64,000 nt of DNA from Bdellovibrionales bacterium (lineage in GTDB: Bacteria > Bdellovibrionota > Bdellovibrionia > Bdellovibrionales > UBA1609): positions 32,001 through 96,000 of the forward strand of contig CBDHDF010000010.1 in assembly GCA_965261545.1 (NCBI GenBank), in the 5' to 3' direction. Both the position numbers and the translations under genes were made by a program. Positions 24,726 through 60,820 of the stretch are shown here, one piece after another; position 1 is the stretch's first letter, and the number at the start of each line of letters is the position of its first letter. The notes under the pieces are model-generated. The model was not told where the DNA came from, ran no database searches, and worked only from the letters and a program-made list of their open reading frames with translations.

Positions 24726-25104
24726 AATGAATTTGAAGGGTTAAAGTTTTAAATTGTTCCAAAATTAAATCCAAAGTGTCACTCCATCCATACGTTAAAC
24801 CGGAATTTATCCGTTTCGCTATTTGATTAAGATTATTTCCGATTTTACTTAAGTCTTTTCTCAAAATAGATAGATCATCCTTGTTCACCAGCACTTTCGT
24901 TGAAGGTTTGTCGAAGTAAGACTTCCTTAAGAGTTCAGGGATGGATTTTCCTAATGTTTCACTATCTTTTTTGATTTTGTTATACTCAGAGAGAGACATT
25001 CGCACATGGCTTGAACCACCTTTGGTTGATTTTGTTATGTTGTTTTGACTCATTTGGTCTCCTTTGTTTGTTAGTTTGAGAATTGTATCTTCGCTTTTTT
25101 TCAT
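24700..25104 (-). CDS. mobC: MobC relaxosome accessory protein
   Basis: RHH-like HVRMSLSEY...IPELLR and LSKIGNNLNQIAKRIN. Confidence 0.88.
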   Translation of the reverse strand: MKKSEDTILKLTNKGDQMSQNNITKSTKGGSSHVRMSLSEYNKIKKDSETLGKSIPELLRKSYFDKPSTKVLVNKDDLSILRKDLSKIGNNLNQIAKRINSGLTYGWSDTLDLILEQFKTLTLQIHYDYGIPKN

Positions 25105-25360: not shown

Positions 25361-26712
25361 ATGTATTTTCGTCCATCTTTGGTTCATAACGCAGCTCCCG
25401 CAGCCTTCACAGCAAGGCTCGTTTTGTTCGCAGTATTACTAGCTCCGCCAATAAATTCTGGAGCAGATTCTTGTTTGTTTTCCATCAGCATCGGCCTTAA
25501 AAAGAAGAAGACACTTCCCGTTGTGAGACTGGCCACCAATAGTTGAATCCAGGAATAGATGGAGTAAAAATAGTACATCCTTGAACTCACAAGCTTGGCT
25601 CCATAGAGTGAGATTCCATCAGAAAAGCGGCCTAATTCCTCCATTACTTCCACGGACTGGGCCATGCTGGTCATGATGTGGTAGAACAAAACCCACAGGG
25701 GAGTCCAAAGCAGAACGGAAAAATAAAGGACAAACCAATAAACAAGAACCTTCCACTTTCCAGCCACAACAAAGAAAATCAGGAAGGGGAAGATTGCCAC
25801 CAGGGCCAGCTTTATCAGCCCTGCAACATGGGGGGCACGGGCTAAGTGTTCACTGAATCTTTGGCTTCTTGTTGCGGCCTCAGAAGCTCCATGGGTGTCA
25901 GAAAATCCAAGAAAAGACATCACGGCATCGAAGGAAAACAGGCGGTTGAGGTACTGAAAAACCCGTGCCGTTGTGCCTGGAAGTTGGGAGCCTTTCATAA
26001 TGCCCATCACGGATTCTTTATCTTCCAAATAGTGGTTTACGAGCATGTTGGCCATGTGCATATTTTGGGCGGCCTCATCCCTGATGGGGTAGACATGTTT
26101 CCCACTGTTGCGGATAAAAGTGATGTGGTGGGCTATGGCATACTGCTTTAAACCGTTTCGGACTTCTTTTTTCACATCAAGGCAAGAATAAAGGCTATCT
26201 TCTGTTTTGATTTCAATTTCAGAGAGCTTCTGGTCTATGCCATTATCTTGGTTAAAGAAGGCGTTGAGCTTATCTTGGGCACGGGCTTTTCCAATAAGAG
26301 GCAAGGTCTTTTCAAAGCAATTTTCTGTGTAGAAGTGGACAAGCTCTTTGAGGTCTTGGTTCTGAATGGTGGCCGTTCCCGAATACATAATGGCTTTGTA
26401 AAAGAAGTTGGGGGCACCAAGCTGAGAGTGGGTTCTTGCCATCACATGGTCAATGATCCGACCAAGAAAGGCACTGGATTCCTCTGCCGTCCGGCTCAGA
26501 AGGTCAAAGATAAAGCTCACCTTGGCTTGGTCTTTCACATCGCCATAGCGGGTTTTGATGTAGGGGTTATCTTTCCAAGACTCTCCGTAATAATTCTTCA
26601 CCCCCGTGGTGGAACCCACTCGAAGTAGGGAAAGGCCCAGAAATAGACAAAAAATGACTTTGACAAAGGCTGCTAAGGGAATTTGCTTTCGTGTGACAAT
26701 GGTTCCTGGCAT

Positions 26713-28123
26713 CAATGCCGTTTCCTTAAGCCACCACACCCCTCTGCGTTAAGCTATTTCTTTTAAAAGAACTCCCAGCCCTTTTGATAGACCTTTCATA
26801 GCTTCTTTTGAAGTGCCTCCTCTTCTCCATTGAAATCTTCATCAGCAACTTTATCTGCTTCCTAAATTTCTGATAGAGCCCCGCAACAAAAAGAGGGATG
26901 CTATCCATTATGAAATCAAGAATCAGTTTAAAGTTAGGTTTTTTGTAGTCATTTTTCACCAACTGATTCACACTGTCTTCATCCTCATTTATGCTCATTT
27001 GAATCTTTGTATAATTGAAGAGCCAAAAATAAGAATACAGCTCTTGCAATATTCCATTAAGGCTTGTTGAGTGCCACTGCTCCATTTTCATTGTCGATGT
27101 AAAATCACGAAATGTCGTTTCTATTTCCCAACGACGAGAGTAAAGAGCAACCATATCCTTCTTGTCCAAGGAGCCATGCGGAAGATTAGTGGCCAAAACA
27201 GAGAACTCCCCAGTCTTTGGGTTTTTATACTTATAGAGATGAATGACCACCCCCTCAATAACCATTTGTGAATACCAACCTGGGCCATTAAATAAATTTA
27301 CGATGGGGATAAAAGTAGAGCCTCGCTTACAACGCGCAATAAAGAAGTTACTGGCTTGAGCATGGGCCTTAATAATCTCTGTAGATAAATAAAGCCTATC
27401 GTAGAGAGTTATGCTATTACTCTCAAAACTACCTATCATTTGAATAGCATTGGCGATTTCGTTGAGAGCGGGAGAAAAGCAAAGATTCTTTGTCACACCC
27501 GATAAAACGTCATAAGCATGAGATAGATACATACGTAAGAAATGAGTTTCCATCTCATTTGGGCAAGGGTACCCACAATAACCCTCCTTTAAAAGATCTT
27601 TAGAGCGAGGAAGTGCTAATTGGTCGCCATCTATGGCATAGATATAAAAACCATGAAACGTTTTTCTCAATGGTTCGTAGTCTGTAATCAGAGATTCAAA
27701 GATATCTTTGAAAAATAGGTAAGAAATACTTTGACGTATCTTGCTGAGACTGCTTTTGACTGGCATGAGAAGCAGGTCACCAAAATGAGTCCATACCGTC
27801 TTAAGAGCGATTTGGTAGCCTTCGTAATTTGTTCCGGAAATAAGATAGATAATGGTAAAAAAGAAAATTTGAGGATTAAATTTTCGATTCCTTTTTTGTT
27901 TTTCTGGATCGACAAGGTGCTCTGGCTTGAAGGAAGAATCAAGTTTTGGTAGAATAAAATGGTCATCTGTGACGCGAACTCGTCATTTGGGGGCTTTCGA
28001 GATCAATATTGGATTGCATGTGACTTACTCCTTGGTTGAGGGTTGGGTGTAAAATAAAACAAGTCTTATTCTTGTCGATTTATCTAATGATTTCAAGAGA
28101 TTTTTCTTAAGGAAACGGCATTG
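26713..28123 (-). mobile_element. IS4-family element (copy 3, complete, 1411 bp)
   Basis: Same 18-bp IRs as 8635-10051; 11-bp duplication GTTCCTGGCAT at 26702-26712 and 28124-28134. Confidence 0.95.
26726..27766 (-). CDS. IS4-family transposase
   Basis: Almost identical to 8992..10038, 2 aa shorter at the C-terminus. Confidence 0.9.
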   Translation of the reverse strand: MPVKSSLSKIRQSISYLFFKDIFESLITDYEPLRKTFHGFYIYAIDGDQLALPRSKDLLKEGYCGYPCPNEMETHFLRMYLSHAYDVLSGVTKNLCFSPALNEIANAIQMIGSFESNSITLYDRLYLSTEIIKAHAQASNFFIARCKRGSTFIPIVNLFNGPGWYSQMVIEGVVIHLYKYKNPKTGEFSVLATNLPHGSLDKKDMVALYSRRWEIETTFRDFTSTMKMEQWHSTSLNGILQELYSYFWLFNYTKIQMSINEDEDSVNQLVKNDYKKPNFKLILDFIMDSIPLFVAGLYQKFRKQIKLLMKISMEKRRHFKRSYERSIKRAGSSFKRNSLTQRGVVA

Positions 28124-28300: not shown

Positions 28301-29770
28301 TTAGAATCCTCCCTGGTCAGAGTTCGGATCAGAAGAACAAAGAATGCCGTCAGAGCAGTCAAATAGCTGCCTCTGAGAACGCTTAGAATTGATCCTATTG
28401 GCTTCATTGCCCAAAGTCCTCTCTGTGCTCTGGCCTTGATAAAGACGCCCCTCCTTGGTGATCTGAGAGATGACAGCGTTGAGTGGGGTGTTTTGGACCT
28501 CTTGAAGTTGCAAGGTGGCCTCAATGGAGTCTTTGAGCTTCAGCCTCTTCTCTCCAATCTCCTTTTTTCTTGGAGCGGGAAGGTTGGGGTTTTGCTCCAA
28601 AATATTGAGCATATCCAGTGAGCGGTTCATTTCATGGGAGAACTTGGTCAAGGCAATGGAGGAGGCAAGTTTGCGACAATAAGAACCTCTTTTGATAAAT
28701 GGGAGGTAGGACAGGTACCTGATTGTTTGCTTATCAATGTAGGTTTGGCCTTTGTGGCCACCGATGTCTTTAAGGGCTTTTATATCAATCAGGCGATCAA
28801 GGCTTATGCGGTGGGCATTTTTATCAATCTTTTTCAAAAGTCCACGGCACAGTTTCTCATAGGTATCCTTTTCAAGTTCATAAAGCCTTGTTCTGGGAGT
28901 GATGGCTCTACGCCTTGGCCCATATTCCACAGAAATACGGCCTTGACCGACAACAGTGTCCCCCACAAGGGCTTTGATAAGCTCGACAGTGCGTCTTGCT
29001 TCTTTTGAATTGAAACCAGCCCACTTGGCTGAAGACTCAATGAGTTTGTTCTCGTTGGCTTTGAGTCCAAAGCGGCTTCCAGCCCAGTTCGCTAAGTCCA
29101 CAGAGTAGTCTGAACCTGAACGGCACTCCTTCATGGCCTGTTCCATATTTCCTCCATTTTTTTGAATGGCCCTGTGGACACATCCTTGCCGCTCCTGCTT
29201 AAAATCTTCGGTTCGTTGATCGACATATTTGTCAATCAAGGCACATTGATCGAGCCTCATTTGCGAAAGAAAGTTGGCGTTGACTCTTGTGTGCTTGAGG
29301 ATGGAACACCATGTGGGGCTGAAATAGCAAGTAAGTAACATGGGGCTTGCTGCCATGATGTTGTTTCCCAGAGACTCAAAGTATTTGGAGTCCAAAAGGT
29401 TTTTTAAGGCTCCCTGGAGAGTGTTTTTAAAATCAATTCTCCCACAGTCGGCGTCTATACCGAGCTTAAATCCAAGGTCCACCGTTTGGTAATTATCAAA
29501 GATATAATCACTTTCTGGGCTGCGTTCTTTAAACAGGTAGTCCGTTGAGGACATTTCAGAGTTATGCCTGTAGTTAAAGTTCTTAGCCCTTTGAGCCGCG
29601 ACAGCCATTGCTGGTAAAGCTGATAAGGACAATAAGGCTAGGGTTGATGAGAATAAGAATAATGAGACTGATAGGGTGGGTGGAGATAAAAACACCAATA
29701 GGATGAGCCTCATTGTTTTCCATATTCTCATTGTTCTCAATTTCATTGCTTTTAACTTTATTGTTCTCAA
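28301..29770 (-). CDS. TraH-like exported conjugation protein
   Basis: Signal peptide, DADCGRIDF motif (TraH GCGGID-like), several cysteines, upstream of traG. Confidence 0.6.
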   Translation of the reverse strand: MRTIKLKAMKLRTMRIWKTMRLILLVFLSPPTLSVSLFLFSSTLALLSLSALPAMAVAAQRAKNFNYRHNSEMSSTDYLFKERSPESDYIFDNYQTVDLGFKLGIDADCGRIDFKNTLQGALKNLLDSKYFESLGNNIMAASPMLLTCYFSPTWCSILKHTRVNANFLSQMRLDQCALIDKYVDQRTEDFKQERQGCVHRAIQKNGGNMEQAMKECRSGSDYSVDLANWAGSRFGLKANENKLIESSAKWAGFNSKEARRTVELIKALVGDTVVGQGRISVEYGPRRRAITPRTRLYELEKDTYEKLCRGLLKKIDKNAHRISLDRLIDIKALKDIGGHKGQTYIDKQTIRYLSYLPFIKRGSYCRKLASSIALTKFSHEMNRSLDMLNILEQNPNLPAPRKKEIGEKRLKLKDSIEATLQLQEVQNTPLNAVISQITKEGRLYQGQSTERTLGNEANRINSKRSQRQLFDCSDGILCSSDPNSDQGGF

Positions 29771-29782
29771 TTTTCTCTCCTT

Positions 29783-30226
29783 TTATGATTGTTTTCCTTT
29801 ATGATTTATGAACTCCCTAGAATAAAAACTTTCCTTTATGGGAATCGGTATAGGCACCAATGGAAGCCGTATTTTCTGACTCCATTCCTTCTTTCCGGCA
29901 ATCTCCAGAACTAAAACAAGTAAGACATAAATGGAGACCATTTGCCCTAGGAGCAGGATAAAATCTAAGAATTCTATGGGAGCCAAGGGAACCAAGAAGA
30001 TGCTCATATATGTCAAAACCTCGCTTAAAGAAAACAGAGGAAGAAATGTGGTGGCAATGTCATAATCACTCTTCTTAAGACCTGCAAAGTGGATATGAAA
30101 AAGAAGCAAGATGCAATAAACGGGAGAGCCAATGAGCAAATACCCAATGAGTAAGATATACCTTTCCGCATTTTCTCCCATGGAATGATGGATGGATTTT
30201 ATAAAATTTCTGTACTCTTGAGTCAT
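29783..30226 (-). CDS. Small multi-pass membrane protein
   Basis: 147 aa, about three hydrophobic segments, AGGAG RBS, inside the tra operon. Confidence 0.65.
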   Translation of the reverse strand: MTQEYRNFIKSIHHSMGENAERYILLIGYLLIGSPVYCILLLFHIHFAGLKKSDYDIATTFLPLFSLSEVLTYMSIFLVPLAPIEFLDFILLLGQMVSIYVLLVLVLEIAGKKEWSQKIRLPLVPIPIPIKESFYSREFINHKGKQS

Positions 30227-30272
30227 ATTGATCTCCTATCTATTTAGGTTGTGTTATCGTTTGTTGGTTTTC

Positions 30273-32882
30273 CTATTTCTCTTGGGTTTTATTGTTTTTT
30301 GGGGAATGATGAGTGGTTAAGTACAAAAGGGCTTCCCAAGGCTTGCCGTCAAATTTTTTGATGGCATCCTCAAAGGTTTTCAAATCGGCTCGATTGGTGG
30401 GGGCAAGCCACCGGTCGTAGGGGGTTTGGTAATATCGAAAGGCCCCTTGTTTGGACTTGTCCTTGTTCATGTAGAAGATTTCGGTAAACTGCCCTTTTTT
30501 GACCTTGAGAGATTTGACAATTTCAGAATTGGCTTCATCAAAAAGATTTGACTTTTGAAGCAGGTAGTCCACGTTGTCGGGACTCATTTTGAGCATAATA
30601 AAATTATCAGCCACCGACCACATAGCTTGACCAGCTTCAAGCTCGAAATAGTTTTGGGGTCTAGGTGTCAGTCCAATAAGCCAGAATCCAAGCTTTCTGA
30701 AGGTTTCAGCCGCATCAATAATAAAGTTTTTGGCCACGGGATTGTTGCGACCGAGCATCCCCAATTCTTCGATAACAATAAAGCCACCACGCTCTCGATG
30801 CTCTGGCCTTTGTATCGTTTGACGTATTTCTTCAATCACACTCATTGTCATCAGAGTTTGAAGAGTTTCGTCCTTAAGGGCATCCAAGTCATAGACAAAA
30901 AGAAGTTCTGAAGACTTGTCTTTTTGAGCCACCCCCTGGAAATACTTGGAATAAGTCCCATCTCCATAAAAAGGGTTGAGTTTGACAAGAACTCTTTCAA
31001 TCTCCTCTTTCATCTTTTCAAACTCTAGTTCAGATGTGAGGCTTGCCATGGCTGTTACAAAGTCATCCATTGTGACTTCCACTTCTTCTTGGCTTTCTTC
31101 GCTAACAAGTTTTCCATCCATATAAGAAAGGCCAGACTCCTTGGATTTTTTAAGATAAGCCAGCTTCAATGCCCTAGAGATGCTGGTAATATGCTCACTT
31201 TCAATCTCAAACTTCGGGGAGGTCAGCTTAATGGCTGTGGTGAGGAGATGAGTGAGGAAATTCACTTTGGCATCATCAAAAGCTCCACGAAAGGGGGAGA
31301 AGGGCATTTCTTCCTGGGGGTCAAAGACTGTCAGTTCCCCATGAAAGGGGCCTATGACTCCCTTGTAACTGGATTTCTTATCAATGACGAAAACAAGGGG
31401 TTCTGGGTCAAGTCGCTTTGCAGACTGGATGCAATCAATGACAAAGGCTGACTTTCCGCTCCCACTATCAGCTAAAACCACGGTATGGTTTGAAGTTTCA
31501 TTTTCAAGGAGATTGAAGTTTATAAGGTTCTTCTCTCTTGAAAGATAGGTTTGCAGTGAGTGGGATAAGCCCTTGAAAGAATCAAAAAGTGGCAAAAACA
31601 TGACCGCATCATTTTGCAAAATGCGAATGTATCTCTGAGTTGAGTAATCCGCTTCAGGGGAGTAGTTTAAGGGAAGGGAGTTCAGGGCTAGGCCCAAGCC
31701 AATTTCTTCCTCCACAATCACCTCGCACTCAAGGTCATTGTGAAAGATGTTGATGAGTTCTCGTGTGCGTTGGTCTAGAATTTCTTCCGTTTCTCCCTCA
31801 AGAATGATGCAAAAAGTGAGATAAAGGCATTTTTCACCCACAGCCAAGCGGTCTTGGGCTTCTTTAATTTCTGCTCTTTGAACCTTGGCACTTCGTGAAA
31901 CATTGTTTTCAAGAAAAAATTCTTTAATATCAAAGAATTTTTTGACTTTTCCCTTGGAGGGGAAGCTAAAATTTAGGGACATTTTAAAAGGAAAATCCAA
32001 CTTGGTAAAATAAGCCATGCCTCCAGCGTAGGCAAACTGTGGACTTGTTTTTAATGTTATGGTTCTTGTTTTGACTCCCTCTCTTTCGATTCCTCTATAG
32101 TCAAGAGTGGGACTGTTGTAAATCAACTGGTCAGAAATGGAGAGATGCTTGTTGAACTTTGCAAATCCTCTCTTATAAAACTCTTTGGGATTAAAGAATT
32201 GGCGAGCATGGGTTAAGAACTCTTGAGCATCAAGGGTTTTGAGTTTTATTTTTGAGTTTTCAATATATTGCTTCATCATTTGGGAAAACAGTTTGATCTG
32301 TTTAACAAATTCACTCATTTCATCGAAAAGTATTCTCTCCCCTCGGTCCAGTGATCTTTTCCATTCTGCTGTGGCTGATTTTGGAGGGAAAAACCGAATG
32401 GACAAGAGGACTTTTCTCTTCAAAGGAGCCAGCTCATTGGTTGAATTGCATTGGTTTTGAATCATCTTGACCTTTTCTTTGTAAAGGATTTTTGAGACAG
32501 GGTGTGGGTACTTGTACTCACTGAGAAGCGTCTTCCAAACCTTGTCCTTTTGAGAAATATAAGACTGGTCAAAGAGAACTTGGAGGACACAGTTTTCAGG
32601 CAAAGCAAATAGTGATTTGAAGGACTCAACAGATGAAATGATATTTTTGATGGTCATGGGCTCATGTTCTAAAAGCTCGGCTTCGAGGATGGCGCCAAGG
32701 CTTCCATCCTTATTGACGAAGGTTCTAAACTCATCAATGTACTCGCTATATGGAAGCCATTGGCTTAGGGAATCCGAACGTTTGAATAGGGCTTCAGACA
32801 ATTGGAAACGGTTGCTCAATACTTGATGGATGGGGTTTAAAGTATCATGTAATTTCATGAAGACCTCCTCAGTCATTTTCAA
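30273..32882 (-). CDS. traC: TraC/VirB4 conjugation ATPase
   Basis: 869 aa; ADSGSGKS Walker A, VIDKKSSY, IVIEE, FRKLG. Confidence 0.88.
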   Translation of the reverse strand: MKMTEEVFMKLHDTLNPIHQVLSNRFQLSEALFKRSDSLSQWLPYSEYIDEFRTFVNKDGSLGAILEAELLEHEPMTIKNIISSVESFKSLFALPENCVLQVLFDQSYISQKDKVWKTLLSEYKYPHPVSKILYKEKVKMIQNQCNSTNELAPLKRKVLLSIRFFPPKSATAEWKRSLDRGERILFDEMSEFVKQIKLFSQMMKQYIENSKIKLKTLDAQEFLTHARQFFNPKEFYKRGFAKFNKHLSISDQLIYNSPTLDYRGIEREGVKTRTITLKTSPQFAYAGGMAYFTKLDFPFKMSLNFSFPSKGKVKKFFDIKEFFLENNVSRSAKVQRAEIKEAQDRLAVGEKCLYLTFCIILEGETEEILDQRTRELINIFHNDLECEVIVEEEIGLGLALNSLPLNYSPEADYSTQRYIRILQNDAVMFLPLFDSFKGLSHSLQTYLSREKNLINFNLLENETSNHTVVLADSGSGKSAFVIDCIQSAKRLDPEPLVFVIDKKSSYKGVIGPFHGELTVFDPQEEMPFSPFRGAFDDAKVNFLTHLLTTAIKLTSPKFEIESEHITSISRALKLAYLKKSKESGLSYMDGKLVSEESQEEVEVTMDDFVTAMASLTSELEFEKMKEEIERVLVKLNPFYGDGTYSKYFQGVAQKDKSSELLFVYDLDALKDETLQTLMTMSVIEEIRQTIQRPEHRERGGFIVIEELGMLGRNNPVAKNFIIDAAETFRKLGFWLIGLTPRPQNYFELEAGQAMWSVADNFIMLKMSPDNVDYLLQKSNLFDEANSEIVKSLKVKKGQFTEIFYMNKDKSKQGAFRYYQTPYDRWLAPTNRADLKTFEDAIKKFDGKPWEALLYLTTHHSPKNNKTQEK

Positions 32883-33148
32883 TGATGTTCAGGTAAAGAC
32901 CATTTGGTCTCCTCAATTAAAAGGTAAATCCATGCTCCACCAAAATAATCACCCGTGGGCATCTCATGGGCGTGAAGCCAAGCCTTTTTGATCTTTCCCC
33001 TGGTTCTTGAGACCCTTTTTTCCCTGTTGGGCTGGGCATTAAGGGAATAACCAGCCCTTTTTTCAAGAATCCCAGAAGTTTTTGTGTGGGCACAGCCTCC
33101 AAGGCTAATCAATAATGCGAGTAAGATATGAAAATACTTTTTCATGGC
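32879..33148 (-). CDS. TraV-like lipoprotein
   Basis: Lipobox LGGC; KAWLHAHEMPTGDYF; between traB and traC. Confidence 0.7.
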   Translation of the reverse strand, partial: AMKKYFHILLALLISLGGCAHTKTSGILEKRAGYSLNAQPNREKRVSRTRGKIKKAWLHAHEMPTGDYFGGAWIYLLIEETKWSLPEHH

Positions 33149-34462
33149 GATTTCTCCTTTCATTTTTCATAAAGAAATTGTTGGGCAATAAGACTTTTTC
33201 CTGCATAACAATCCACACATCCTGGCCTGAATGGACAGCTAAGGTGGGGATGAGAGAGGTGGCTTGTTTCAAGTACCAGTCACTCACCTTGGCGGCGGCT
33301 CCTTGGGCACCATTTTGCACAATGGTATTGGCGGAGTCTGGATTTGAACCCCCGATGTTTTGAGATCTGCGACTGATAATGTCCCCAACTCCATCCACTA
33401 CAGATTTGAGGAAGGCCATTTGGGCCACACGACTTTGTTTGGAGTTCAGTTTGGCTTTAACGGCAAAGGTATTGTCTGAATCATCCGCAATAAAGCCATT
33501 CACCTTTCTTTCAAAGAATTTTCCTTTTTTGGAAACACATGAAAGGCGAGTGGCCTGAAAGTTAATTCGTTCGGTGGCCATGGATGGGGAACTCTTGGCA
33601 ATCATAAAGCAGCCAGATAGATCCACTTTGTGCTTGTTGGGTCCAATATAGGAATAATCGAGAGCCAGAAGCACAGGGTAAGTTTTCCCCTCTGGGGCAT
33701 CGACACCTGTCATCAGCTTGGCTTTGACATAGCTTCCTGTGGGCAAAGTGACTCCTTCTTCCACTCGCTGATGTTTTACAGGAAAGGAGATAACTCTAGG
33801 GCCTTTAGAGCTTTTGAAGTTTCCATGGTGGCGACGAGGCTTTGGTCTTGTTTGGAATATATGACTCCTGGGTGTGGGAGGGCCGCCAAGGGAGAATTGG
33901 TTGTTGCCAAGGGGCAACTGATGGCTTTCTAACAAGCCACTTCCAACATGAATCCTCACAGGCTCGTCTTTGTGTGGCCCCATTTTCAGAACTCTTGTTT
34001 TTTCTGGCTCTGTCATTTTTTCTGAAGCTTGGGCATTTGAAGCCTGGGCATCAATTTTTTTCTTTTCAGATAGAAGCTTTGGGTCTTCGTTTGTAGCACT
34101 CGTTTGTGGTCGTGGTGCTATAACTTTGCTTCCATCTGTTTTTCAAGTTCCCGGATCCTCGCTTCAAGAGCCTGATTTTCAGCCATGATCTTCTTGGCGG
34201 TTTTACTCAATTGCACCTCCTTGTTCTTGAGGTAAGATGAGGTTTGGGAACCGAAAATCCGACCCTCTTTAAAAACTGGTCTCTGGTGATCTCGGTAAAT
34301 CACTTTCTTTGTCTCTGACATTTTACTCGTGATATAGATAAGGCTCAGGCCAAGAAAAAGAAATAATCCCATTTTTGTCTTTGGATAAGCCAACAAAGAC
34401 TTCTTTGCCGAACTGTATTGCCTTAAGGAGTGTTTAAAGAAATTCTTCACTAGTAGATTCAT
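33105..34462 (-). pseudogene. traB: TraB/VirB10-like protein with single-base frameshift near 34139-34143
   Basis: ORF 34118..34462 gives TM plus coiled coil; ORF 33105..34016 gives LPTGSYVKAKLMTGVDAP, LSGCFMI, RLSCV. One extra A in the A5 run joins them. Confidence 0.8.
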
Positions 34463-35343
34463 ATTTGCCTTCCTTTCTTTGCATGTTTATTTTCTTCATA
34501 TTGATTTTTTTCATGCTTAACAAAAGTTGGGATCATGAGGTCATTCACTGAAGCCGTTGGTTTGGCAACAATCTTTAAAAAAGTGCTACAAGTACTCCTT
34601 TTTGTTGGACATAACACCTCATGGTCAACAAGTGACATAATGGCCAAAGACGATCCTTTGAACTTCAGTTGATCTACCTCCACTTTAAACTTCGCTGTCT
34701 TACAAACATTGCTGAGCCTAACAACAAAGCCCTTGTATTCCTTCCCTGTATAAGTGCGGGTGAGTCTTGTTTTGATGCATCGAGGTCCCATGACCCGGAG
34801 GGGCGTGGTGAACAAGAGTCTGTTTTCTACCCTGCGCTTGTATCCCACAATATTGTCATCCCTATCCATGGACCTCATAAAGTCCATGACAGTGATCGCT
34901 GGTAGGTTTTTCTCTGACTTCTTAAGTAACATGCTCTTCGGGCGCAAATCATAAAAAGGTTCCGAAGAGTGTTTGGAATCGCTAGAGTTGTTTGTGCTTT
35001 TCACAATTTTGATTTTTAGAGTCACCACGCTCCCATCACTGAGAACAAAGGCCACCTTTGAGGTGCCCTTCGTAAAACGGGGACGAATGGAAAGCATGGA
35101 GTAGTCGGGGTCATTGGAATCGGCAGGCTTAATCTCAAATCTTTGGGCTTGAGAAATAGTTCGTACCTGTTTATGAAACCTGAAAATGGTCTCTTTGGAG
35201 ATACGGACAAGCTCTGGTCTTGAGCCATAGTAAATTTCTCTCGCCTGAGATGTGAGGGAAAAGAGAAGCAAGGCAAGAAAAACAAATACGACCAATAAAA
35301 TATATAAGGTGATAAATAAGACATTGCATAAATATTTATTCAT
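34459..35343 (-). CDS. TraK-like exported protein
   Basis: Signal peptide ending SQA; position between traE-like and traB-like genes. Confidence 0.6.
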   Translation of the reverse strand: MNKYLCNVLFITLYILLVVFVFLALLLFSLTSQAREIYYGSRPELVRISKETIFRFHKQVRTISQAQRFEIKPADSNDPDYSMLSIRPRFTKGTSKVAFVLSDGSVVTLKIKIVKSTNNSSDSKHSSEPFYDLRPKSMLLKKSEKNLPAITVMDFMRSMDRDDNIVGYKRRVENRLLFTTPLRVMGPRCIKTRLTRTYTGKEYKGFVVRLSNVCKTAKFKVEVDQLKFKGSSLAIMSLVDHEVLCPTKRSTCSTFLKIVAKPTASVNDLMIPTFVKHEKNQYEENKHAKKGRQI

Positions 35344-35345
35344 GG

Positions 35346-36077
35346 TTACCTCTTTCCTTGGGGGTTATTGGTGATTTCTTTTCCTCTAAAGGAGTTGGCT
35401 TCTGTACGAGTGAGGGAGGTGATTTGCAAGAACCACTTTTTACCCTGCTTGGGGGGAATCAGCTTTAAGACCATTTCAATAACCTCATCAGTTCTTCCCA
35501 TGTACTCATTGTTGGCGTAACGCTCCCTTGTCGTGATGGCAACCACCTTGTAATGACCTCGCTCATTGGATACTATCTCTTTGTCTGTCACCTTTAAGAC
35601 TTCAGAAATATTCTCCATTTTCACCATCTCAGCCCACTCTGATATTTCCATATCAAAGCGAACCTTAAGGTCGTGGGACATATAACTGGAGAGTTCCGTG
35701 TATTGCCCATCAATGTTGACTGGGTTGATATTCCCAAGGATTCTTAAAAAGGACATGACAGCGTTTTCCACATAACCATCGGTGACAGTTTGAGGAGAGG
35801 CTGGTGTGAAGTCCACAACTCCTGGGGCCAAGATATACTCCTTTTCTCTAAGCTTTGAATGAAGGTTTCCGATTTCATATCTGGTCACAACAAAGTAAAC
35901 ACCCAAGACCCCAATGAGCAGAAGAATGATATTTTGCAATAAAATCTTCTCCTTCAATAAAGCGGCCTTAAAGCATAAATACTTGGGCAAGACCTTAAGG
36001 TTCACCCCATCATAGGAGCCCGCAGGTGGTGAACTCACTTGAGAGGATTGGATGCCTTTTTCCATAGCTCCCACCAT
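35346..36077 (-). CDS. TraE/VirB8-like protein
   Basis: Single TM followed by YVENAVMSFLRILGNINPVNI; start placed after the stop of the upstream gene. Confidence 0.65.
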   Translation of the reverse strand: MVGAMEKGIQSSQVSSPPAGSYDGVNLKVLPKYLCFKAALLKEKILLQNIILLLIGVLGVYFVVTRYEIGNLHSKLREKEYILAPGVVDFTPASPQTVTDGYVENAVMSFLRILGNINPVNIDGQYTELSSYMSHDLKVRFDMEISEWAEMVKMENISEVLKVTDKEIVSNERGHYKVVAITTRERYANNEYMGRTDEVIEMVLKLIPPKQGKKWFLQITSLTRTEANSFRGKEITNNPQGKR

Positions 36078-36078
36078 A

Positions 36079-36411
36079 CTACTTACCACTTCCTGACACT
36101 TCTTTTTTGCTGCCTTGAGCTTTGTAAGGACTTTCGTTCTCAATGATGGTACGAATGTAATTGGTCGGGAAAATGCATGTCTTAATGACTTGAACAACAA
36201 ATGATTTTCCATCCTTAGATTTAAAAGCCTTGACTTCTTCAATGGGTCTTCTTGCATAAAATCCTCCATCTTTCTTTTTGGAAATTATTTGTTTGTTGGT
36301 ATTGGCTTGCTTGCTGGCAGTTGTGTGTTTGTTGGTATCCGCTTCTTTACTGGCAATTGCCTGTTTGGTAGCCATCACTTGATTCTTATTTTCTTTATTT
36401 TTGTGAGTCAT
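36079..36411 (-). CDS. Small basic hypothetical protein with repetitive N-terminus
   Basis: GAGG RBS; ASK(E/Q)A(D/N)TNK repeats, then a compact beta-rich core. Confidence 0.6.
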   Translation of the reverse strand: MTHKNKENKNQVMATKQAIASKEADTNKHTTASKQANTNKQIISKKKDGGFYARRPIEEVKAFKSKDGKSFVVQVIKTCIFPTNYIRTIIENESPYKAQGSKKEVSGSGK

Positions 36412-36422
36412 TGTGACCTCCT

Positions 36423-36457
36423 GGTTATGGTTATGGTTATGGTTATGGTTATGGTTA
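36423..36457. repeat. (GGTTAT)n hexamer microsatellite
   Basis: Five full units plus a partial one, in the gap between traL-like and the RBS of the next gene. Confidence 0.85.
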
Positions 36458-36475
36458 GATGTTTATATTAAATGC

Positions 36476-36787
36476 TTAATCAGAGTATTTTTTCTTTCCT
36501 TTCGGGTTCATAAGAGCTGGTAGGCTCATGTTCCATCGACTGTAAGGCCAATGAAGGAAAATGCCTTTGTGATTCCTTCTCTTTATTACCGGTCCTATTC
36601 CCAAAAACAGTAATAATAGGATGAACATAGTCCACCATGAATAAAAGATGACCCCAAATATCAAGATGATAAAGAGGGCTATAAAGACATCACTTAACTC
36701 CCAAAAGTCGAACACAGTGATGGGTGAGTCGATGGATTGAGCCACCTTTCTCCCATGTCTTGCTTTAATCAATGCATAATCGTACAT
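36476..36787 (-). CDS. TraL/VirB3-like membrane protein
   Basis: 103 aa; IDSPITVFDFWE, two TM segments, GIFLHWPY; follows the pilin gene. Confidence 0.7.
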   Translation of the reverse strand: MYDYALIKARHGRKVAQSIDSPITVFDFWELSDVFIALFIILIFGVIFYSWWTMFILLLLFLGIGPVIKRRNHKGIFLHWPYSRWNMSLPALMNPKGKKKYSD

Positions 36788-36807
36788 AATGAAACCTCCT
36801 TTCTAGT

Positions 36808-37209
36808 TTAGTTAAAAATCCCATTTCCTCCACCAATGGAGAAAATATTTTCTACCCAAACGGGGGCAGTTCCGAGAATAATGGCAGCAATGATGCAAAC
36901 AATGGCAACTCCAAACCTTTGCTCCTTGAGGTTATACCCTGCTGATAGGATACTAATTCCTGAAAACAGCCTTGCCCCCCACTTAAAAAGGGCTGTATCG
37001 ACAATTCTTAGGACTGTGCCAGCGGCTTCCAGTTGGTCTGAGGCGTCTGTTCCCGGAATTCGAGGGCCTGCATAGGCCATAGAAACCATTGTCAATAAAA
37101 GTAGAAGTAGTAGTAGTAGTAGTAGTAAAAGATTTCGATGTGTTGGGTCTTTGCCAAAGAAATTGGCTGGAGTTGTTTGACACATATATTTTGCAAACAT
37201 GACATCCAT
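36808..37209 (-). CDS. Conjugative pilin precursor (TraA/VirB2-like)
   Basis: Poly-Leu signal peptide ending AYA, then two hydrophobic helices; start placed at ATG after AGGAG. Confidence 0.65.
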   Translation of the reverse strand: MDVMFAKYMCQTTPANFFGKDPTHRNLLLLLLLLLLLLLTMVSMAYAGPRIPGTDASDQLEAAGTVLRIVDTALFKWGARLFSGISILSAGYNLKEQRFGVAIVCIIAAIILGTAPVWVENIFSIGGGNGIFN

Positions 37210-37418
37210 AGTTTTTTCTCCTTGTTCTTGGTTGGATTTCTCACCATCATTATTATGAATGGGATGAGGGATGGGGTTAGGGGTGAAATTAGAAATGAGT
37301 TCCAAATTATGAGTAGAATTGGAATTATAAGGAGAACCCACATTATAGGAATTTTTAAAGCATTTTGAGTTATAACCCTTGTGTTTTGTTTTACACATTG
37401 TCTGGCAAACAGGATAAA

Positions 37419-38278
37419 TCATAGTTTTTCTCCTTTTTCTAGTAGGGCAATCATTGAATTTACACCTTGGAAACCAATAATGGCTGGGTGAAGGACTTTC
37501 TTTTTTAAATCCGCAACAAGTGTGAATGGTACAGATTCAATCTTGTGCTTTTTTATCTCATCTCTTGTGGCTTTCTGTATGGGAAGTGGAAAAGAGTTTT
37601 TCTTAAAATCTCTGTCATCCACCTGTCGAGCCTCAACATAGATTCCACGATTTTGTAATTTTAGGAGAGTCTTAAACATTCGTTTGCATGAGGGACATTT
37701 AGAATCAAAATACATTCTGACCCTGTATCTTGAGGGATCAAATGAGATTTTTGGACTTTGGATTTTTTTCTGAAGAACTTGGCGAACTTCAGGGGTGTAT
37801 TTTGAGTTTTTACTCAAATACTCTTTGATCCTCTGTTGAAGTCGCTTATTGAGGGAGCTTTTCACCTTGTTGTAGGCCATCCAATTTCTGATATTCTCAT
37901 CCGTTGGGTTGCGGGCAAGTTCTATAAAAGGCTCTGGAGGTTTGTAGCTTCCTTCCTTGAAGAACTCATCATTTTGAGGGTTGAGGTACTTTTCCCAGTC
38001 AAATGGCTTTGATGTTTTCTTCGTTTCTTTGTCTTTCTGAGTTTTTTTGTATTCTTTGACTTCTGTCTCTTTTTTGTCTTTTTTAATTTGGAACTCGTTG
38101 GTGGTCGTAGTTCCTAGTTCTTTTTTCCGTTCTCCTTCCAATAATCAATACCATCAGGGAAATATTTTATTTCTTGGTTATTGGTTTGAGGTGAAATATT
38201 GCGACTTGCCTGGATTGAGGTGAGGCAAGAAAGAAACAATAGATTGAAAAGAAGCAATCGTTTGATAGGGTTATTCAC
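37419..38278 (-). pseudogene. Exported thioredoxin-like (TraF/TrbC-like) protein with frameshift near 38121-38126
   Basis: YFDSKCPSC and ESVP motifs. A signal peptide MNNPIKRLLLFNLLFLSCLTSIQA starts at GTG 38278 in another frame and joins if the A6 run gains one A. Confidence 0.65.
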
Positions 38279-39458
38279 AGTTTAATACCTCCTGATAATC
38301 AATAAGACTGTTTTGAGCCTTTGAGACGTACTCGTCAAGAAGGCTCTTTTTGGGTTTCAATGATTTGGCCAATTCAAATTTTGTAAGATATTCCATAACG
38401 GGGATTCTCCCCACAACTCCCTTTTTGCACCTTTGGCATCCCTTGGAGTTTATTTGTCGGAAGTCTCCTTGTAAGTTGAGGTGAGCAAGGGCATGGATTT
38501 TTCTCACATCTTGGGAGGTCACTCTATTTGAACAAAAGGGACAAATTTTTTTCACAAGTCGTTGAGCCGCACAGAACCTCAAGTTGGATTCAAGCATGTA
38601 GGATTCAACTCCCATATTTCGTAGGCGTTCAATGACTTTCACCGCACTGTTGGCATGAAGGGTGGAAATCACAAGGTGCCCCGTGGCTGAGGCTTTAAAG
38701 CAAAGGTCTGCGGTTTCCCAATCTCGTATTTCACCAACAAAAATAATATCAGGGTCTTGACGGAGCACGGCTCTCAATCCATCGGCAAAAGACAGGGAGT
38801 CTTTAATTTCAATCTGGTTGATTCCTTGAAAGCTATATTCCACAGGGTCTTCCAGTGAGACGATGTTCTTTCGTTCTTTGTCAAGGGAGTTGAGGAGGCT
38901 GAAAAGTGTTCTTGTTTTTCCGCTTCCTGTGGGTCCAGAAACAAGAATCACTCCATTGGGCTCATTGGCTGAGTTGCTAAGGTCAAAAACCGCATCATCA
39001 CTGAGGTTGGATGACTCCAGGTTAAAATCTGTTGTCATATCAAGAAGGCGGAGAACAATCTTTTCCCCATACAGTGTGGGGGTGGAGTTGACTCTCAAGG
39101 CTAATTTCCATGAAGGAAGTGACAAACGGCTGTCTTGTGGTCTATTGCTGATAGCAATAGACAGGTTGCAAAGCCTTTTGGTCTCCTGAATGAAGCTTTG
39201 CCGATAATCTCTGCTGAGGGTCTTGTGAGTAAAGAGGTCACCATTGACTCTTATTCTTATGGCAAGCCCATTGGCATGGGGTTCAATATGAATATCGCTT
39301 GCAGATTGCTTTTGGGCATGTTGCAAGGTCTCTCGGAAAAGTGAGGTGTAAGGACCACAGTTGGCCATTTTTTCTTCACTGGTTTGTTTGTGTTCCATTG
39401 TAATTTGACTCATCTTATCTTCCCTGTTTTTTTCATTCTTTTCATTCTTTTGATTCAT
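38271..39458 (-). CDS. GspE/PilB-family secretion ATPase
   Basis: ASDIHIEP, GEKIVLRLL, GPTGSGKT, LEDPVEY, LRQDPDIIFVGEIRD, TGHLVISTLH, CPFC...CQRC. Confidence 0.92.
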   Translation of the reverse strand: MNQKNEKNEKNREDKMSQITMEHKQTSEEKMANCGPYTSLFRETLQHAQKQSASDIHIEPHANGLAIRIRVNGDLFTHKTLSRDYRQSFIQETKRLCNLSIAISNRPQDSRLSLPSWKLALRVNSTPTLYGEKIVLRLLDMTTDFNLESSNLSDDAVFDLSNSANEPNGVILVSGPTGSGKTRTLFSLLNSLDKERKNIVSLEDPVEYSFQGINQIEIKDSLSFADGLRAVLRQDPDIIFVGEIRDWETADLCFKASATGHLVISTLHANSAVKVIERLRNMGVESYMLESNLRFCAAQRLVKKICPFCSNRVTSQDVRKIHALAHLNLQGDFRQINSKGCQRCKKGVVGRIPVMEYLTKFELAKSLKPKKSLLDEYVSKAQNSLIDYQEVLNCE

Positions 39459-39459
39459 C

Positions 39460-42400
39460 TTACTTTTTCAGTCCTTTTTCTAGTTCTTGGCAGGTGGGTT
39501 TCATGGCGGCAATAACTGCTTTTGAAATTGCAATATGGGCGATGTCACGAACGCAACTGACAGGTTTGTAGATCACAAATAAATATCCTGTTAAGCGACC
39601 TCCCATAAGACGTCCTATTTCTCTCACATTTTTAATGGTGTCGAGGAGGGCAATATTTTGTCCCTCACGAAAGCAAGAACTGGACCCTGGACTTATCATT
39701 TGCCAGGTTTCCCCAAAGCTTGAGGGTGTGGCCATAAAGACTTCTGATGAAATCGACTTCATCCGTGAAGCGATCATCAAGGCCCCGGTGAGAGTGGCAG
39801 GCCCGTTGTAGCTGCCCATTCTTGGGTAAAAAATTCCCCAACCATTGCAGGCAGAATGGCTGGAGGGCGGAAAGATGGGAAGCTGGGGAAGCTTCACGCT
39901 GCACATGGGAGAATCGGGGGCATAAGAAGCATCCGTCCCTCCTGTTGCCGAAGTCATGGCCCCTTTGATAAGGCAAGCTTTGGGAGAGAGCGACCAAGCA
40001 AGAAAATTCGGTTGGAAGCTGTCGCTGATCCCAGTGGACCAGTGCTTATGAATATGCTCGCTCATTCCATCAAAGCACAGCTTGGGAATCCGAATTCCAC
40101 CACAGGGAAGTATGCCAAATGGAATCTGAGCGAGGGGCACGGAGAGAGTTCTGGCATGATAGGATTGGGTGTCTTCATCGTTGGCCACTCCAAAGGGAGC
40201 AAGAGTTTTCACAGTGGACAACTGGAGGGCTGCGCCTGGGAGCTTGTGGAAATGTGAGTGACCTGCACGGGGTGAGACTTCAATAAAAGTTTGAGGGACA
40301 TTGTAGCTGAAGCGAGCACAAGGGCGTGGTGGGAAACCACACATTGTCATTGAGTATTTGAAGTTTAGGCAAGAGTTAAATTCCACAGTATTGACGATCG
40401 AGCAGATATTGGGGAAAGCTTGGGCCTTGTGAGTCAATGCCAGAGGAGTTATGAGAGTCACAAGGGTCAGGCATATGGTGAAAAGATGCATGGTATGTAG
40501 GGCTGGTGTGGCTGGGGCCAAATATGTGGCCAAAGTCAACCATGTGGTGGCGTTGGCCCGCCCGCCCAGCTTGGCATTGGACTTTTTAAAGCCCTCAACG
40601 AACTTTTTGAAAGAAGGCAGGAGAGGCTTTTTTTGAAGCCACTTAAGGACTTTTGTGTGCTTGGTGTTTTGCTTTTTGAGAAAATAGGGTTTTAAGAAAA
40701 GCTTATAGAAGTTAGTTTCTATGCCATCATACACTTGTACAAAGGCTTCAAAGGACTTGAGCCTTGAAAAGTCCTTTCCTGTGATGAGGAATTCCTTTTG
40801 TTGGCTGGTACTGATGGATTCGTTAATATTGGCATCCTTTGAGTCAAAGCCACCGAGAATGAAGTTTCGAGTGGTCCTTTGAGATTGCTCAGAAAGGCTC
40901 CGACTGGTTTTTTCCTGATCCTCTTGTCCCATCAACTCTTTAAAGTTACGAATGGTGTCAATGTCGGAAGAATGGCAAGCAATCCTTGTACGAAAGTTTT
41001 GGATCAGTTCCTTGGCTGCTGTCTCACTGCCAATGGCATTGTAAATGGAACTTAGGCTCTGGGAGGCTGCGAGAAAGAAGAAATTGGCCTCACGACCCTT
41101 GGCACATATTTTATCATCACCCATGGAGCCTCCATGGCCAACGGAGACGATATCTTGGTACTCATCAGCGATCAGGGCTGTCAGAATGTTTCTGGGGCGG
41201 CTGGTGTCTTTTAGGCGGTTTAATACAGACCTCTCATAGTGGAGCTTAATAAAAGTACCCATGGAGCGGCAAAGGGCCTCATGGTTTACATTGAAAAGAA
41301 GAACTTTTCCATTATCAACAATCTCATCCATGGATGGGATCGTGAGGTCTTCTTTTTTGGGACAGAAGATTTGAGCCGCCTTGTAGTTTTGGAATTGATT
41401 GAGAAATGTGGTGGAACTCACCAAAACGCCAGACCTGAACTTGTCTTCAAAGAGTGAGTATTCCTTGAAATATTGGAGGGCGCACTGGATGTTGTACCTT
41501 TCCTCCTCATCAAAGCGGCTCTTTTCCAAAGATGCTTTTAGGTTTTGCGTGACTTCTGTTGAGTCTGCGATGAGCATGGTTTTGTAGCAATCAAGCAAGG
41601 TGAAGTAATCAAATACGGCGGCACAGTAGACGATGACATTTTTTGTAAGGTTGAAAGCGGAGTCCTCCCAAATGGGTGACTCATTGGATTTGCCTGAAAA
41701 GTTCTTTGCCGCAGCCCGTATCATATTGGCAACTTCCAGATAGTTTGAATTTTTCAAGGTGTTGTCAATATAGACAGGGTTAAATGTTTGCATAGACTCC
41801 CCTACGGAACCATGGGGGTCTTTGATATCTCCAAGGTAAACGCACTGATCTACCAGGTCATGTTTTTGAAGTATTTTGGAAGCCTTTTCAATAAAACTGC
41901 CCTTGGGGTCGAGTATCAAGGCGGCTGGTTTGTGTGAAAATTGGGTAAAGAGTTGGTCGACATAGTTCAAGATGGTTCCTTGTGTTTTTCCAGTCCCTAT
42001 GGAACCTGTGACTAAAATATTTCCATTCAATGCTTTTTGGGGAATAGTGAGCCACTTCGGACGCTCCGTTTTGTCAAATGCGTCTGTCTCCTCTCCAATA
42101 GAGCCTAAAGTGAGGCCATCCCTAAAGCGTGATTTTCTGGGCAGTGTTTTATCGAGCTTAAGGAACCTTTGGGTTATTAATAAAATAGAAATTGATCCAT
42201 ACAAGACAATGCTTAAGGATAGTAAGAATGAGCCATTAAGAAATATGCTAAGATATTGAAGCATTCTCTGAGAAAAAATATCCCCATAGGATGAGAGGCT
42301 ATGTGTTGTATATAGCTCAAATGGCACCCAAAATAGGCCGGCCAACAGTAGGCAAAGCAGAGTCTTTGAAAAAACTTCTTTTCCATTCATTTTTTCCTTT

Positions 42401-42702
42401 TTGATGCTTCGCAAACGACTCCCTTGCTTCTTATAGCCCAAGACTCTTTCAAGGATGAGTGTCATCATCAGGGCATTGGCTGAGACAGAAGCCAAGCCTA
42501 TGAGGAGAAAGTCTTGTGTCTCACCAAAAGCCTTTTCAAGGTGAATCCAGTGCAACACAATGGACTCATAGTGACTCAGGCCAAAAAGTGTTAGGAGAAC
42601 AAGGGCGAGAAGACCAATGGCTGCCAGGGGAGAAATATCATCTTTTTTCATTTGTGACCTCTTGTGTGAGACTTGTGAGATTGCATGTTCTTTGTAAAGC
42701 AT
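39460..42702 (-). CDS. Type IV coupling protein (TraD/VirD4-like) fused to a Cys-rich TraU-like domain
   Basis: N-terminal TMs, TGSIGTGKT, LDPKG, IADEYQ, ASQSLS; then an internal signal-like segment and a Cys-rich domain with GWGIFYPRMG and WQMISP. Confidence 0.8.
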   Translation of the reverse strand: MLYKEHAISQVSHKRSQMKKDDISPLAAIGLLALVLLTLFGLSHYESIVLHWIHLEKAFGETQDFLLIGLASVSANALMMTLILERVLGYKKQGSRLRSIKKEKMNGKEVFSKTLLCLLLAGLFWVPFELYTTHSLSSYGDIFSQRMLQYLSIFLNGSFLLSLSIVLYGSISILLITQRFLKLDKTLPRKSRFRDGLTLGSIGEETDAFDKTERPKWLTIPQKALNGNILVTGSIGTGKTQGTILNYVDQLFTQFSHKPAALILDPKGSFIEKASKILQKHDLVDQCVYLGDIKDPHGSVGESMQTFNPVYIDNTLKNSNYLEVANMIRAAAKNFSGKSNESPIWEDSAFNLTKNVIVYCAAVFDYFTLLDCYKTMLIADSTEVTQNLKASLEKSRFDEEERYNIQCALQYFKEYSLFEDKFRSGVLVSSTTFLNQFQNYKAAQIFCPKKEDLTIPSMDEIVDNGKVLLFNVNHEALCRSMGTFIKLHYERSVLNRLKDTSRPRNILTALIADEYQDIVSVGHGGSMGDDKICAKGREANFFFLAASQSLSSIYNAIGSETAAKELIQNFRTRIACHSSDIDTIRNFKELMGQEDQEKTSRSLSEQSQRTTRNFILGGFDSKDANINESISTSQQKEFLITGKDFSRLKSFEAFVQVYDGIETNFYKLFLKPYFLKKQNTKHTKVLKWLQKKPLLPSFKKFVEGFKKSNAKLGGRANATTWLTLATYLAPATPALHTMHLFTICLTLVTLITPLALTHKAQAFPNICSIVNTVEFNSCLNFKYSMTMCGFPPRPCARFSYNVPQTFIEVSPRAGHSHFHKLPGAALQLSTVKTLAPFGVANDEDTQSYHARTLSVPLAQIPFGILPCGGIRIPKLCFDGMSEHIHKHWSTGISDSFQPNFLAWSLSPKACLIKGAMTSATGGTDASYAPDSPMCSVKLPQLPIFPPSSHSACNGWGIFYPRMGSYNGPATLTGALMIASRMKSISSEVFMATPSSFGETWQMISPGSSSCFREGQNIALLDTIKNVREIGRLMGGRLTGYLFVIYKPVSCVRDIAHIAISKAVIAAMKPTCQELEKGLKK

Positions 42703-42866
42703 CGTTCTTTCAGGTTGAACTCAATATTGGCACAGTTCCCATCATGGACCTGAATCACAAAGCTCCCGTACTTCATAGGGAAGTGTGCTTTCTTGGACAC
42801 ATGTGCAATGAGCCTCTCAACGGCTTCTTTGATGATTATTTCGTCTTTCACATTTTCTAAATTCAT
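42648..42866 (-). CDS. Small DUF2292/YezD-like protein
   Basis: YGSFVIQVHDG motif; AAGGA RBS. Confidence 0.55.
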   Translation of the reverse strand: MNLENVKDEIIIKEAVERLIAHVSKKAHFPMKYGSFVIQVHDGNCANIEFNLKERCFTKNMQSHKSHTRGHK

Positions 42867-43049
42867 TTGACTGATTCCTTCTTTATTCCTTGTGGAATGA
42901 TTAAAAATGGTATTCGTTTTTTTAATCGCTTCAGTTCACTCGAACTTCTTAGTATTTCTGAGCCTTTTAGAGGCTTCTTAGAAATCCTTAAAATTTCAAA
43001 TTTTTTGAGTCCTTAGGCTTCTATGAATCCCAAGAAATTCTTATAATTC

Positions 43050-60793: not shown

Positions 60794-60820
60794 AGATCCC
60801 CACTTTTGGGGAAGGAACTC

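Follow-up and report, generated by a model that had tools for sequence, protein, structure and literature searches.

How can a single reading frame supply a mobile element with a coupling protein and a TraU-like protein that would work on opposite sides of the inner membrane? The question is posed by a minus-strand gene at positions 39460 to 42702 of a 64,000-nucleotide (nt) stretch from a Bdellovibrionales bacterium (GenBank assembly GCA_965261545.1, contig CBDHDF010000010.1, positions 32,001 to 96,000; hereafter the window), where it heads an F-like transfer operon in an integrated element. That a coupling protein stands in frame before the signal peptide and domain of TraU, that a whole clade conserves this arrangement, that the junction has the anatomy of a signal peptide and that no second start accompanies it are all directly apparent at the level of sequence. 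We consider it probable that the product is a polyprotein, which signal peptidase I would cut into two proteins on opposite membrane sides. Both parts are known from conjugation systems. Their union in one chain is clade-wide, and our literature search found it in no paper, although supplementary tables of conjugation-system surveys, which lay outside that search, could list such fusions.

Architecture of the fused gene

A sequence-only reading of the locus had described a 1,080-residue frame holding a TraD/VirD4-like ATPase, a basic linker, a hydrophobic core with an A-x-A site and a Cys-rich TraU-like domain. The frame is indeed free of stops over 1,080 codons, but its product is probably shorter. 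The second Met codon (42651) is preceded by AAGAGG, overlaps the stop of the upstream gene (ATGA) and lines up with an initial Met that is all but invariant among 84 aligned full-length proteins; we therefore prefer it as the start, giving a likely length of 1,063 amino acids (aa). Full-length homologs align across aa 1 to 104, and the idea that this region is a separately fused small gene was rejected.

Four hydrophobic segments within aa 21 to 180, detected by hydropathy and helical in the structure model, occupy the N terminus, and by the positive-inside rule the basic loops of this region predict a cytoplasmic position for the ATPase. Walker A (GSIGTGKT at aa 233; 42006 to 41983) and Walker B (LIADEYQ at aa 510; 41175 to 41155) motifs follow, and three Pfam coupling-protein families match across aa 228 to 663, each above its cutoff (PF10412, 46.1 versus 20.5 bits; PF12696, 29.9 versus 22; PF02534, 22.8 versus 20.1). 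Foldseek ranked Cag-beta (8dol; E = 1e-13) and TrwB (1e9s; E = 8e-13) at the top for the ATPase model. Judged by sequence and predicted fold, this half is a type IV coupling protein of the TrwB/VirD4 kind, with predicted ATPase activity. The name TraD was too narrow: the score against TIGR03743 (TraD) is 42.5 bits, so far under the curated cutoff of 366 that the ATPase is not TraD proper.

The hydrophobic segment and its A-x-A site lie where they had been described, at aa 738 to 767 (MHLFT...AQA, then FPNIC). The last 318 aa of the window protein contain 12 Cys and gave no Pfam match. AlphaFold2 modeled the whole chain with a mean predicted local distance difference test (pLDDT) score of 84 and a predicted template modeling (pTM) score of 0.59, as four N-terminal helices, the ATPase, a low-confidence linker whose single helix spans aa 739 to 756, and a confident C-terminal domain, which modeled alone reached a pLDDT of 90.7 and a pTM of 0.90. 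The models thus show two independently folded parts joined by a low-confidence linker. A promoter and terminator scan of 39000 to 43600 returned counts no higher than the shuffled level. Features of the gene and its element are collected in Table 1.

Table 1. Coordinates, strands and supporting evidence for the fused gene, its parts and the surrounding element in the window
Feature	Position	Strand	Evidence
Fusion open reading frame (ORF): coupling protein, internal signal peptide and TraU-like domain	39460..42702, likely start 42651	-	ORF, alignment, structure model
N-terminal membrane region, four predicted helices	42118..42651	-	Hydropathy and helices in structure model
TrwB/VirD4-fold ATPase with all-alpha domain	40633..42117	-	Pfam PF10412/PF12696/PF02534, Foldseek
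Basic variable linker (n-region side)	40492..40632	-	Copy comparison; pLDDT <50 in model
Predicted internal Sec-type signal peptide: hydrophobic core, polar c-region, A-Q-A at -3 to -1	40417..40491	-	Hydropathy, position profiles
TraU-family domain, 318 aa, predicted mature start F-P-N-I-C	39460..40416	-	Homology searches, structure model
Small upstream gene, 72 aa, weak DUF2292 match, stop overlaps likely fusion start	42648..42866	-	Pfam, ORF list
PilB/GspE-type ATPase	38271..39458	-	PF00437, TIGR02538
F-like mating-pair genes: TraF-like, two small ORFs, TraE, TraK-like, TraB, TraV, TraC/VirB4, TraH-like	28301..38141	-	Family profiles
TraG_N-like gene	25384..26739	-	Pfam
MobC/NikA and MOBP-type relaxase, module co-occurring with fused coupling protein	22749..25104	-	Family profiles, locus comparison
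Excisionase-like helix-turn-helix (HTH) protein and tyrosine integrase	20572..22067	-	Pfam

Conservation of the fusion in Bdellovibrionota

An assembly error, or decay of a dead element, might also join two genes, and the setting invites the suspicion: the genome is rich in insertion sequences (ISs), one of them lies at the 5' end of traG in the window copy, and another copy of the element has an extra base in its TraU part. The genome holds three copies (two on contig C10, including that of the window, and one on contig C11), and the junction is in frame in all three. The copies differ by indels of +6, -6 and -135 nt in the linker and of +3, +114 and -3 nt in a loop of the ATPase; all six are multiples of three, which would happen by chance about once in 700 cases. 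The 135-nt deletion in the C11 copy takes out the internal ATG and extends up to the point where the hydrophobic core begins. A seventh indel, in the second C10 copy, adds a T to the TraU part; a short-read contig of that haplotype lacks the extra T, which probably reflects an error of assembly.

Overlapping short-read contigs, none of which spans the gene by itself, tile 39875 to 42233 with zero differences and no stop or frameshift in the linker, and the 135-nt skip was seen in three of four short-read runs. Because the four runs come from one sample, possibly the one behind the assembly, they test the assembly only and are not independent support. None of the sequencing runs listed was of RNA. 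Synonymous changes between copies exceed nonsynonymous ones in both domains (24/12 and 24/6 in the ATPase; 14/3 and 10/5 in TraU), and the fusion recurs in dozens of other genomes. The probability that artefact or decay made this junction is very low, and for the family as a whole such an origin is already refuted.

The sequence-only reading had asked whether homologs keep the fusion or are consistently two genes. Searching long proteins with the TraU part gave 221 matches, and all 120 among the matches listed carry a coupling-protein Pfam domain (one of the 120 is the genome's own third copy). Near-length proteins gave 61 matches, 34 of which were classed as stand-alone TraU with a leader of 16 to 36 aa. 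At the genome level we classified the best 80 of 101 loci, nearly all from Bdellovibrionota, the group to which the nearest named loci also belong: 58 are fused, 16 encode stand-alone TraU, 5 are cut by contig ends and 1 (L048) is multiply frameshifted, whereas coupling-protein and TraU genes that are separate but adjacent occur in none of the intact loci. Of 83 full-length fusions, 81 have Walker A and 82 have Walker B.

Kinship of the C-terminal domain to TraU rests on its relatives. PF06834 is matched by 41 of 47 aligned members (E ≤ 0.01), and 12 of 14 fused representatives from a deep search pass its cutoff; the domain of the window itself has no PF06834 match at E ≤ 0.01 and is, on this evidence, a divergent TraU whose membership comes through those relatives. 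The median Cys count is 12 in fused and stand-alone forms alike. A sequence search of solved structures with both alignments found no match, and fold searches of the TraU model gave no clear solved match (best Z of 4.0; root mean square deviation of 4.4 over 60 aligned residues), a lack that is not evidence of a new fold. Searched by tblastn, 72,556 plasmid records gave no match to the TraU domain.

A quick, midpoint-rooted tree of the mature TraU domain (73 rows; L094 and L105, being short or gapped, were left out) separates 56 fused and 5 stand-alone rows (Shimodaira-Hasegawa-like approximate likelihood ratio test [SH-aLRT] support of 96) from 11 stand-alone rows and one long-branched fused row, and four state changes suffice to explain it. 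As the tree is quick and midpoint-rooted, we can only infer the direction of fusion.

TraU-family domains were also seen in other company: the distant P0269 (673 aa) carries one behind a polysaccharide lyase 14 domain, and P0264 and P0284 have TraU at the C terminus behind unannotated regions.

Anatomy of the junction

If the two parts are separated by signal peptidase I, the junction should look like a signal peptide, which for the Sec/signal peptidase I route means a basic n-region, an uncharged h-region, a polar c-region, small residues at -3 and -1 and no Pro at +1. We profiled 127 fused and 34 stand-alone proteins relative to the conserved mature start, and the fused junctions have this anatomy. 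Lys and Arg lie upstream, almost none occur from -15 to -6, the core runs from -15 to -7, and polar residues fill -6 to -4; a small residue (Ala, Gly or Ser) occupies -3 in 79% of the 127 fusions and -1 in 82%. The mature start coincides exactly with a small-x-small site in 86 of 127 fusions and in 25 of 34 stand-alone proteins, against an ATPase background of 10.6% per position, and the cores of the two forms are equally hydrophobic (Kyte-Doolittle mean over 9 aa of 2.50 in fused versus 2.59 in stand-alone proteins, P = 0.18; over 19 aa, 1.49 in both). After clustering at 75% identity, the exact site is present in 25 of 32 representatives and a site within two residues in 31 of 32. Positions -18 to -4 are only 13% identical among these representatives, compared with 56% in the mature domain; because the site persists at such low identity, it is the pattern and not the sequence that is under selection. 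Lipoprotein cleavage at the first Cys was considered and rejected, as P-N-[IV]-C contains no lipobox by the usual rule.

Several observations weigh against cleavage. The site is missing from the exact position in 41 of the 127 fusions; 38 of those have one within 3 residues, and allowing five offsets lifts the chance match from background to about 43%. The 34 stand-alone controls include a few probable fusion fragments from contig edges (e.g., P0124), and because the homologs are kin, the counts overstate independence. The median 19-aa hydrophobicity of 1.49 is close to that of the weakest N-terminal helix (1.54) and the segment of the window copy reaches 1.97, so the segment could be a stable anchor. 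There is also a precedent in F TraG. A review relates that its periplasmic part, formerly believed to be freed at a signal peptidase I site predicted after Ala451, now appears to need its anchor (PMC7555446).

An alternative hypothesis is that TraU is a nested gene translated from its own internal start and that the continuous frame means nothing beyond a missing stop. The window copy has an ATG (40491) just before the hydrophobic core, and a start backed by a Shine-Dalgarno-like (SD) motif occurs 17 to 33 codons upstream of the mature start in 8 of 58 fused loci, against a background of 6%. However, any ATG, GTG or TTG occurs in this range in 30 of the 58 (52%) and ATG alone in 17 (29%), both exactly at background (52% and 29%), which leaves 28 fused loci with no start codon in range; in stand-alone loci a start is present in 16 of 16 and SD-backed in 10 of 16. 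The ATG of the window has no SD-like motif upstream, as had been pointed out; a Met 15 to 30 residues ahead of the mature start is found in only 40 of the 127 fused homologs, and an in-frame deletion has removed the ATG from the C11 copy, so on sequence grounds the ATG of the window is incidental. No stop interrupts the junction in proteins down to about 40% identity. A separate internal start for TraU is very unlikely.

A further hypothesis, slightly less likely again, is recoding, in which a -1 ribosomal frameshift in the linker would yield mostly free coupling protein and the fusion as a minor product. The linker of the window does contain an in-frame A_AAA_AAG at 40632, with a stop 10 codons on in the -1 frame, and the same heptamer sits at the overlaps of three split loci, described below. 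It occurs in the linker of only 4 of 58 fused loci, at a rate per Lys-Lys pair that is the same as in the ATPase (0.27 versus 0.29), and in the window it is not followed by any significant structure (z = -1.1). As a mechanism for the whole family, linker frameshifting was rejected on the four loci and the ATPase-like rate. Internal initiation, recoding and artefact remain improbable even when pooled.

Split coupling proteins and the case for a tether

The remaining alternative is that the chain stays uncut, or is cut only in part, with the segment serving as a fifth membrane helix by which each coupling subunit holds a periplasmic TraU. Such a tether would link the DNA motor to the mating-pair apparatus. 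It is consistent with the hydrophobicity of the segment, which overlaps that of weak membrane helices, with its appearance as an 18-residue helix in the model of the window protein and with the F TraG precedent (PMC7555446). It also finds support in where the gene breaks. The coupling gene is in two frames in 14 of 58 fused loci, at three places away from the junction: nine loci are split after Walker A, three after the membrane part and two within the all-alpha domain. The junction itself is broken only in the multiply frameshifted L048, and in split forms nothing but the segment would anchor the ATPase half to the membrane.

Against a tether, the small residues at -3 and -1 and the polar c-region are kept at the rate of true N-terminal signal peptides despite 13% identity, the hydrophobic core is only about 9 residues long, and a spent signal peptide would anchor the split halves too. 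Stand-alone TraU, moreover, serves elements with another coupling ATPase. The sequence-only reading had left cleavage and tethering side by side; both still stand as readings, with cleavage better supported than a permanent tether. A chain left uncut, or cut in part, we regard as unlikely.

The Walker A splits (L027 to L030, L032, L033, L035, L042 and L094, at about 7860 to 10950) consist of two overlapping genes: one encodes the membrane-anchored chain with Walker A, the other the chain that bears Walker B and TraU. The result is a naturally split P-loop ATPase. In most of these loci the second gene starts at a GGAG-backed ATG that overlaps the upstream stop, which gives them the look of genuine two-gene forms. 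The window protein itself falls inside the split clade on the tree (10 rows, support of 99; 8 split and 1 truncated) and has a short extra loop (41793 to 41822) ending in GGGGAG and an ATG (41793) that it keeps where its nearest relatives start the second gene; its continuous ATPase is therefore probably a refusion. At this site the other C10 copy has the 114-nt in-frame insertion and the C11 copy has ATA. The start at 41793 is possibly still active in the window copy.

Three of the splits enter the -1 frame at an in-frame A_AAA_AAG (L080:8964, L089:8964 and L036:2974). L080 and L089 have the heptamer at the same position and, 5 nt after it, a shared GAGGC...GCCTC stem (z = -4.2 and -1.6), and a programmed -1 frameshift is possible in this subclade.

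Transfer operon and exchange of mobilization modules

Downstream of the fusion, the operon encodes a PilB/GspE-type ATPase, TraF-like, TraE, TraB, TraV, TraC, TraH-like and TraG-like proteins, followed by MobC, the MOBP relaxase, the excisionase-like HTH protein and the integrase; the presence of the last two marks the element as integrative. The mating-pair formation type F (MPF-F) set of TraC/VirB4, TraB, TraE, TraV, TraG, TraF, TraH and TraU is represented, with the TraF, TraG and TraH matches weak and below cutoff (a homolog of the TraH-like protein matches PF06122 weakly). Two small ORFs are called pilin-like and TraL-like, and a third gene TraK-like, by position only. TraW, TrbC and TraN had no match among the cluster ORFs scanned, several of which have no family match, and no search dedicated to them was made. 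A PilB/GspE-type ATPase is unusual in an F-like system; by score it is not VirB11-type, and in most related loci, fused and stand-alone, a homolog comes immediately after the TraU domain. The IS at the 5' end of traG (26712 to 28119) is found only in the window copy, which because of it may have lost self-transfer.

Other features were noted around the element. In the C11 copy, a different insertion lies immediately behind traC. Upstream of the operon, 43050 to 44668 holds a sigma-70 region 4-like gene with a duplicated partial copy, and a homolog of this gene precedes stand-alone traU in many loci. A 704-aa ORF (15046 to 17160) fuses a DruA domain (PF14236) to a DDE transposase domain. Positions 1 to 14500 and 57977 to 61224 form a dense stack of ISs with many near-identical copies elsewhere in the genome, and the excisionase-integrase pair is likewise present in many copies.

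Fused and stand-alone elements differ in what follows traG. All 13 other fused elements read past traG (L153, L156 to L163, L165, L167, L168 and L170; L169 does not reach that far) carry MobC and a MOBP relaxase and no FtsK-like gene. Among eight stand-alone loci read past traG, five (L145, L147, L149, L154 and L166) carry an FtsK-like ATPase and a Replic_Relax-type gene alongside the same F-like mating genes, and three have neither module in the stretch read. A profile of the ATPase half of the fusion had no match in five genomes with a stand-alone element; Pfam coupling-protein searches of five genomes of the stand-alone type gave weak matches on other contigs in three. From gene content, the FtsK-like ATPase and Replic_Relax-type gene are an alternative mobilization module in Bdellovibrionota elements, and the fusion travels with one module only, that of MobC and MOBP. 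Because five stand-alone elements pair TraU with an FtsK-like coupling module, TraU appears to work without a tether in these sister elements.

No coupling gene or relaxase was found after traG in the stand-alone-TraU elements L151, L164 and L171/L172, whose genomes (G070 and G076) also hold a fused-type gene.

Comparison with known systems

Like TrwB of R388, VirD4/Cag-beta and F TraD, the ATPase of the fusion has an N-terminal membrane anchor, Walker A and B motifs and an all-alpha domain in the same fold, and as with known coupling proteins its gene is linked to a relaxase and a VirB4-type ATPase (TraC, MobC and the MOBP relaxase in the window). The usual coupling protein has two N-terminal helices. 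The fusion differs from TrwB, VirD4 and TraD in its four predicted helices and in a chain that runs on, past an export signal, to a periplasmic domain; its ATPase also scores far below the TraD and CD1115 family cutoffs, and several subclades have it split into two genes. The TraU part resembles F TraU (PF06834) and IceU of ICEclc, which are also Cys-rich, about 33 to 34 kDa in size, exported by a signal peptide and encoded in an F-like operon with TraF-, TraH- and TraG-like genes. F TraU is described as having 10 Cys (PMC10939261), and known TraU as the product of a separate gene with an N-terminal signal (PMC7555446, PMC10018362), whereas in the fusion the signal lies about 720 residues inside a larger chain. 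A 2020 review presents TraU as a protein without a structure (PMC7555446).

Two precedents bear on how such a chain might be processed. The cytochrome b-c1 precursor FbcH of Bradyrhizobium japonicum joins a membrane protein to an exported protein through an internal signal peptide and is cut in two; it belongs to a respiratory complex, the fusion to conjugation. F TraG (with TraG*) resembles the fusion in being an inner-membrane protein of conjugation for which an internal signal peptidase I site is predicted before a periplasmic domain. In TraG, however, both parts belong to one ancestral protein and the anchored form is favored in the review cited above (PMC7555446), while the fusion joins two otherwise independent genes.

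Proposed processing and implications

In the cleavage scheme that we favor, the four N-terminal helices would insert into the inner membrane and the ATPase would fold in the cytoplasm, after which the internal n-h-c segment would engage Sec and the TraU domain would be exported. Signal peptidase I would then cut before F-P-N-x-C, freeing the same mature TraU that stand-alone genes make and leaving a coupling protein that ends in a spent signal peptide, possibly a C-terminal membrane anchor. The two products would be synthesized 1:1. The probable origin of the fusion is the landing of a MobC/MOBP module's coupling gene, in frame, at the head of the operon, with loss of the start that traU once had; as the coupling gene may simply have landed there, the fusion need not be adaptive.

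We also entertain a more doubtful variant, somewhat less likely than the tether above, in which cleavage is partial or triggered and TraU on the periplasmic face of the coupling ring relays mating-pair contact to the DNA motor. Under the same variant, the extra C-terminal anchor would let some relatives carry Walker A and Walker B on separate chains.

Named fused entries among the matches listed are called coupling protein or hypothetical, so the TraU half has been missed in annotation. A study that built profiles for conjugation systems describes the removal of overlong fusions as likely errors (PMC4027160).

If the chain is cut, the family would be a case of a bacterial polyprotein that is conserved and relies on the housekeeping signal peptidase for its processing, and its coupling protein would work with the C terminus pinned to the membrane; if it is not, TraU would be tied to the DNA motor. 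The function of TraU is still called unclear in the source cited above (PMC10018362), and a relay of mating-pair contact, should that variant be true, would give TraU a direct role and provide a handle on the mating signal. The fused, stand-alone and split-ATPase forms are natural variants that offer ready controls.

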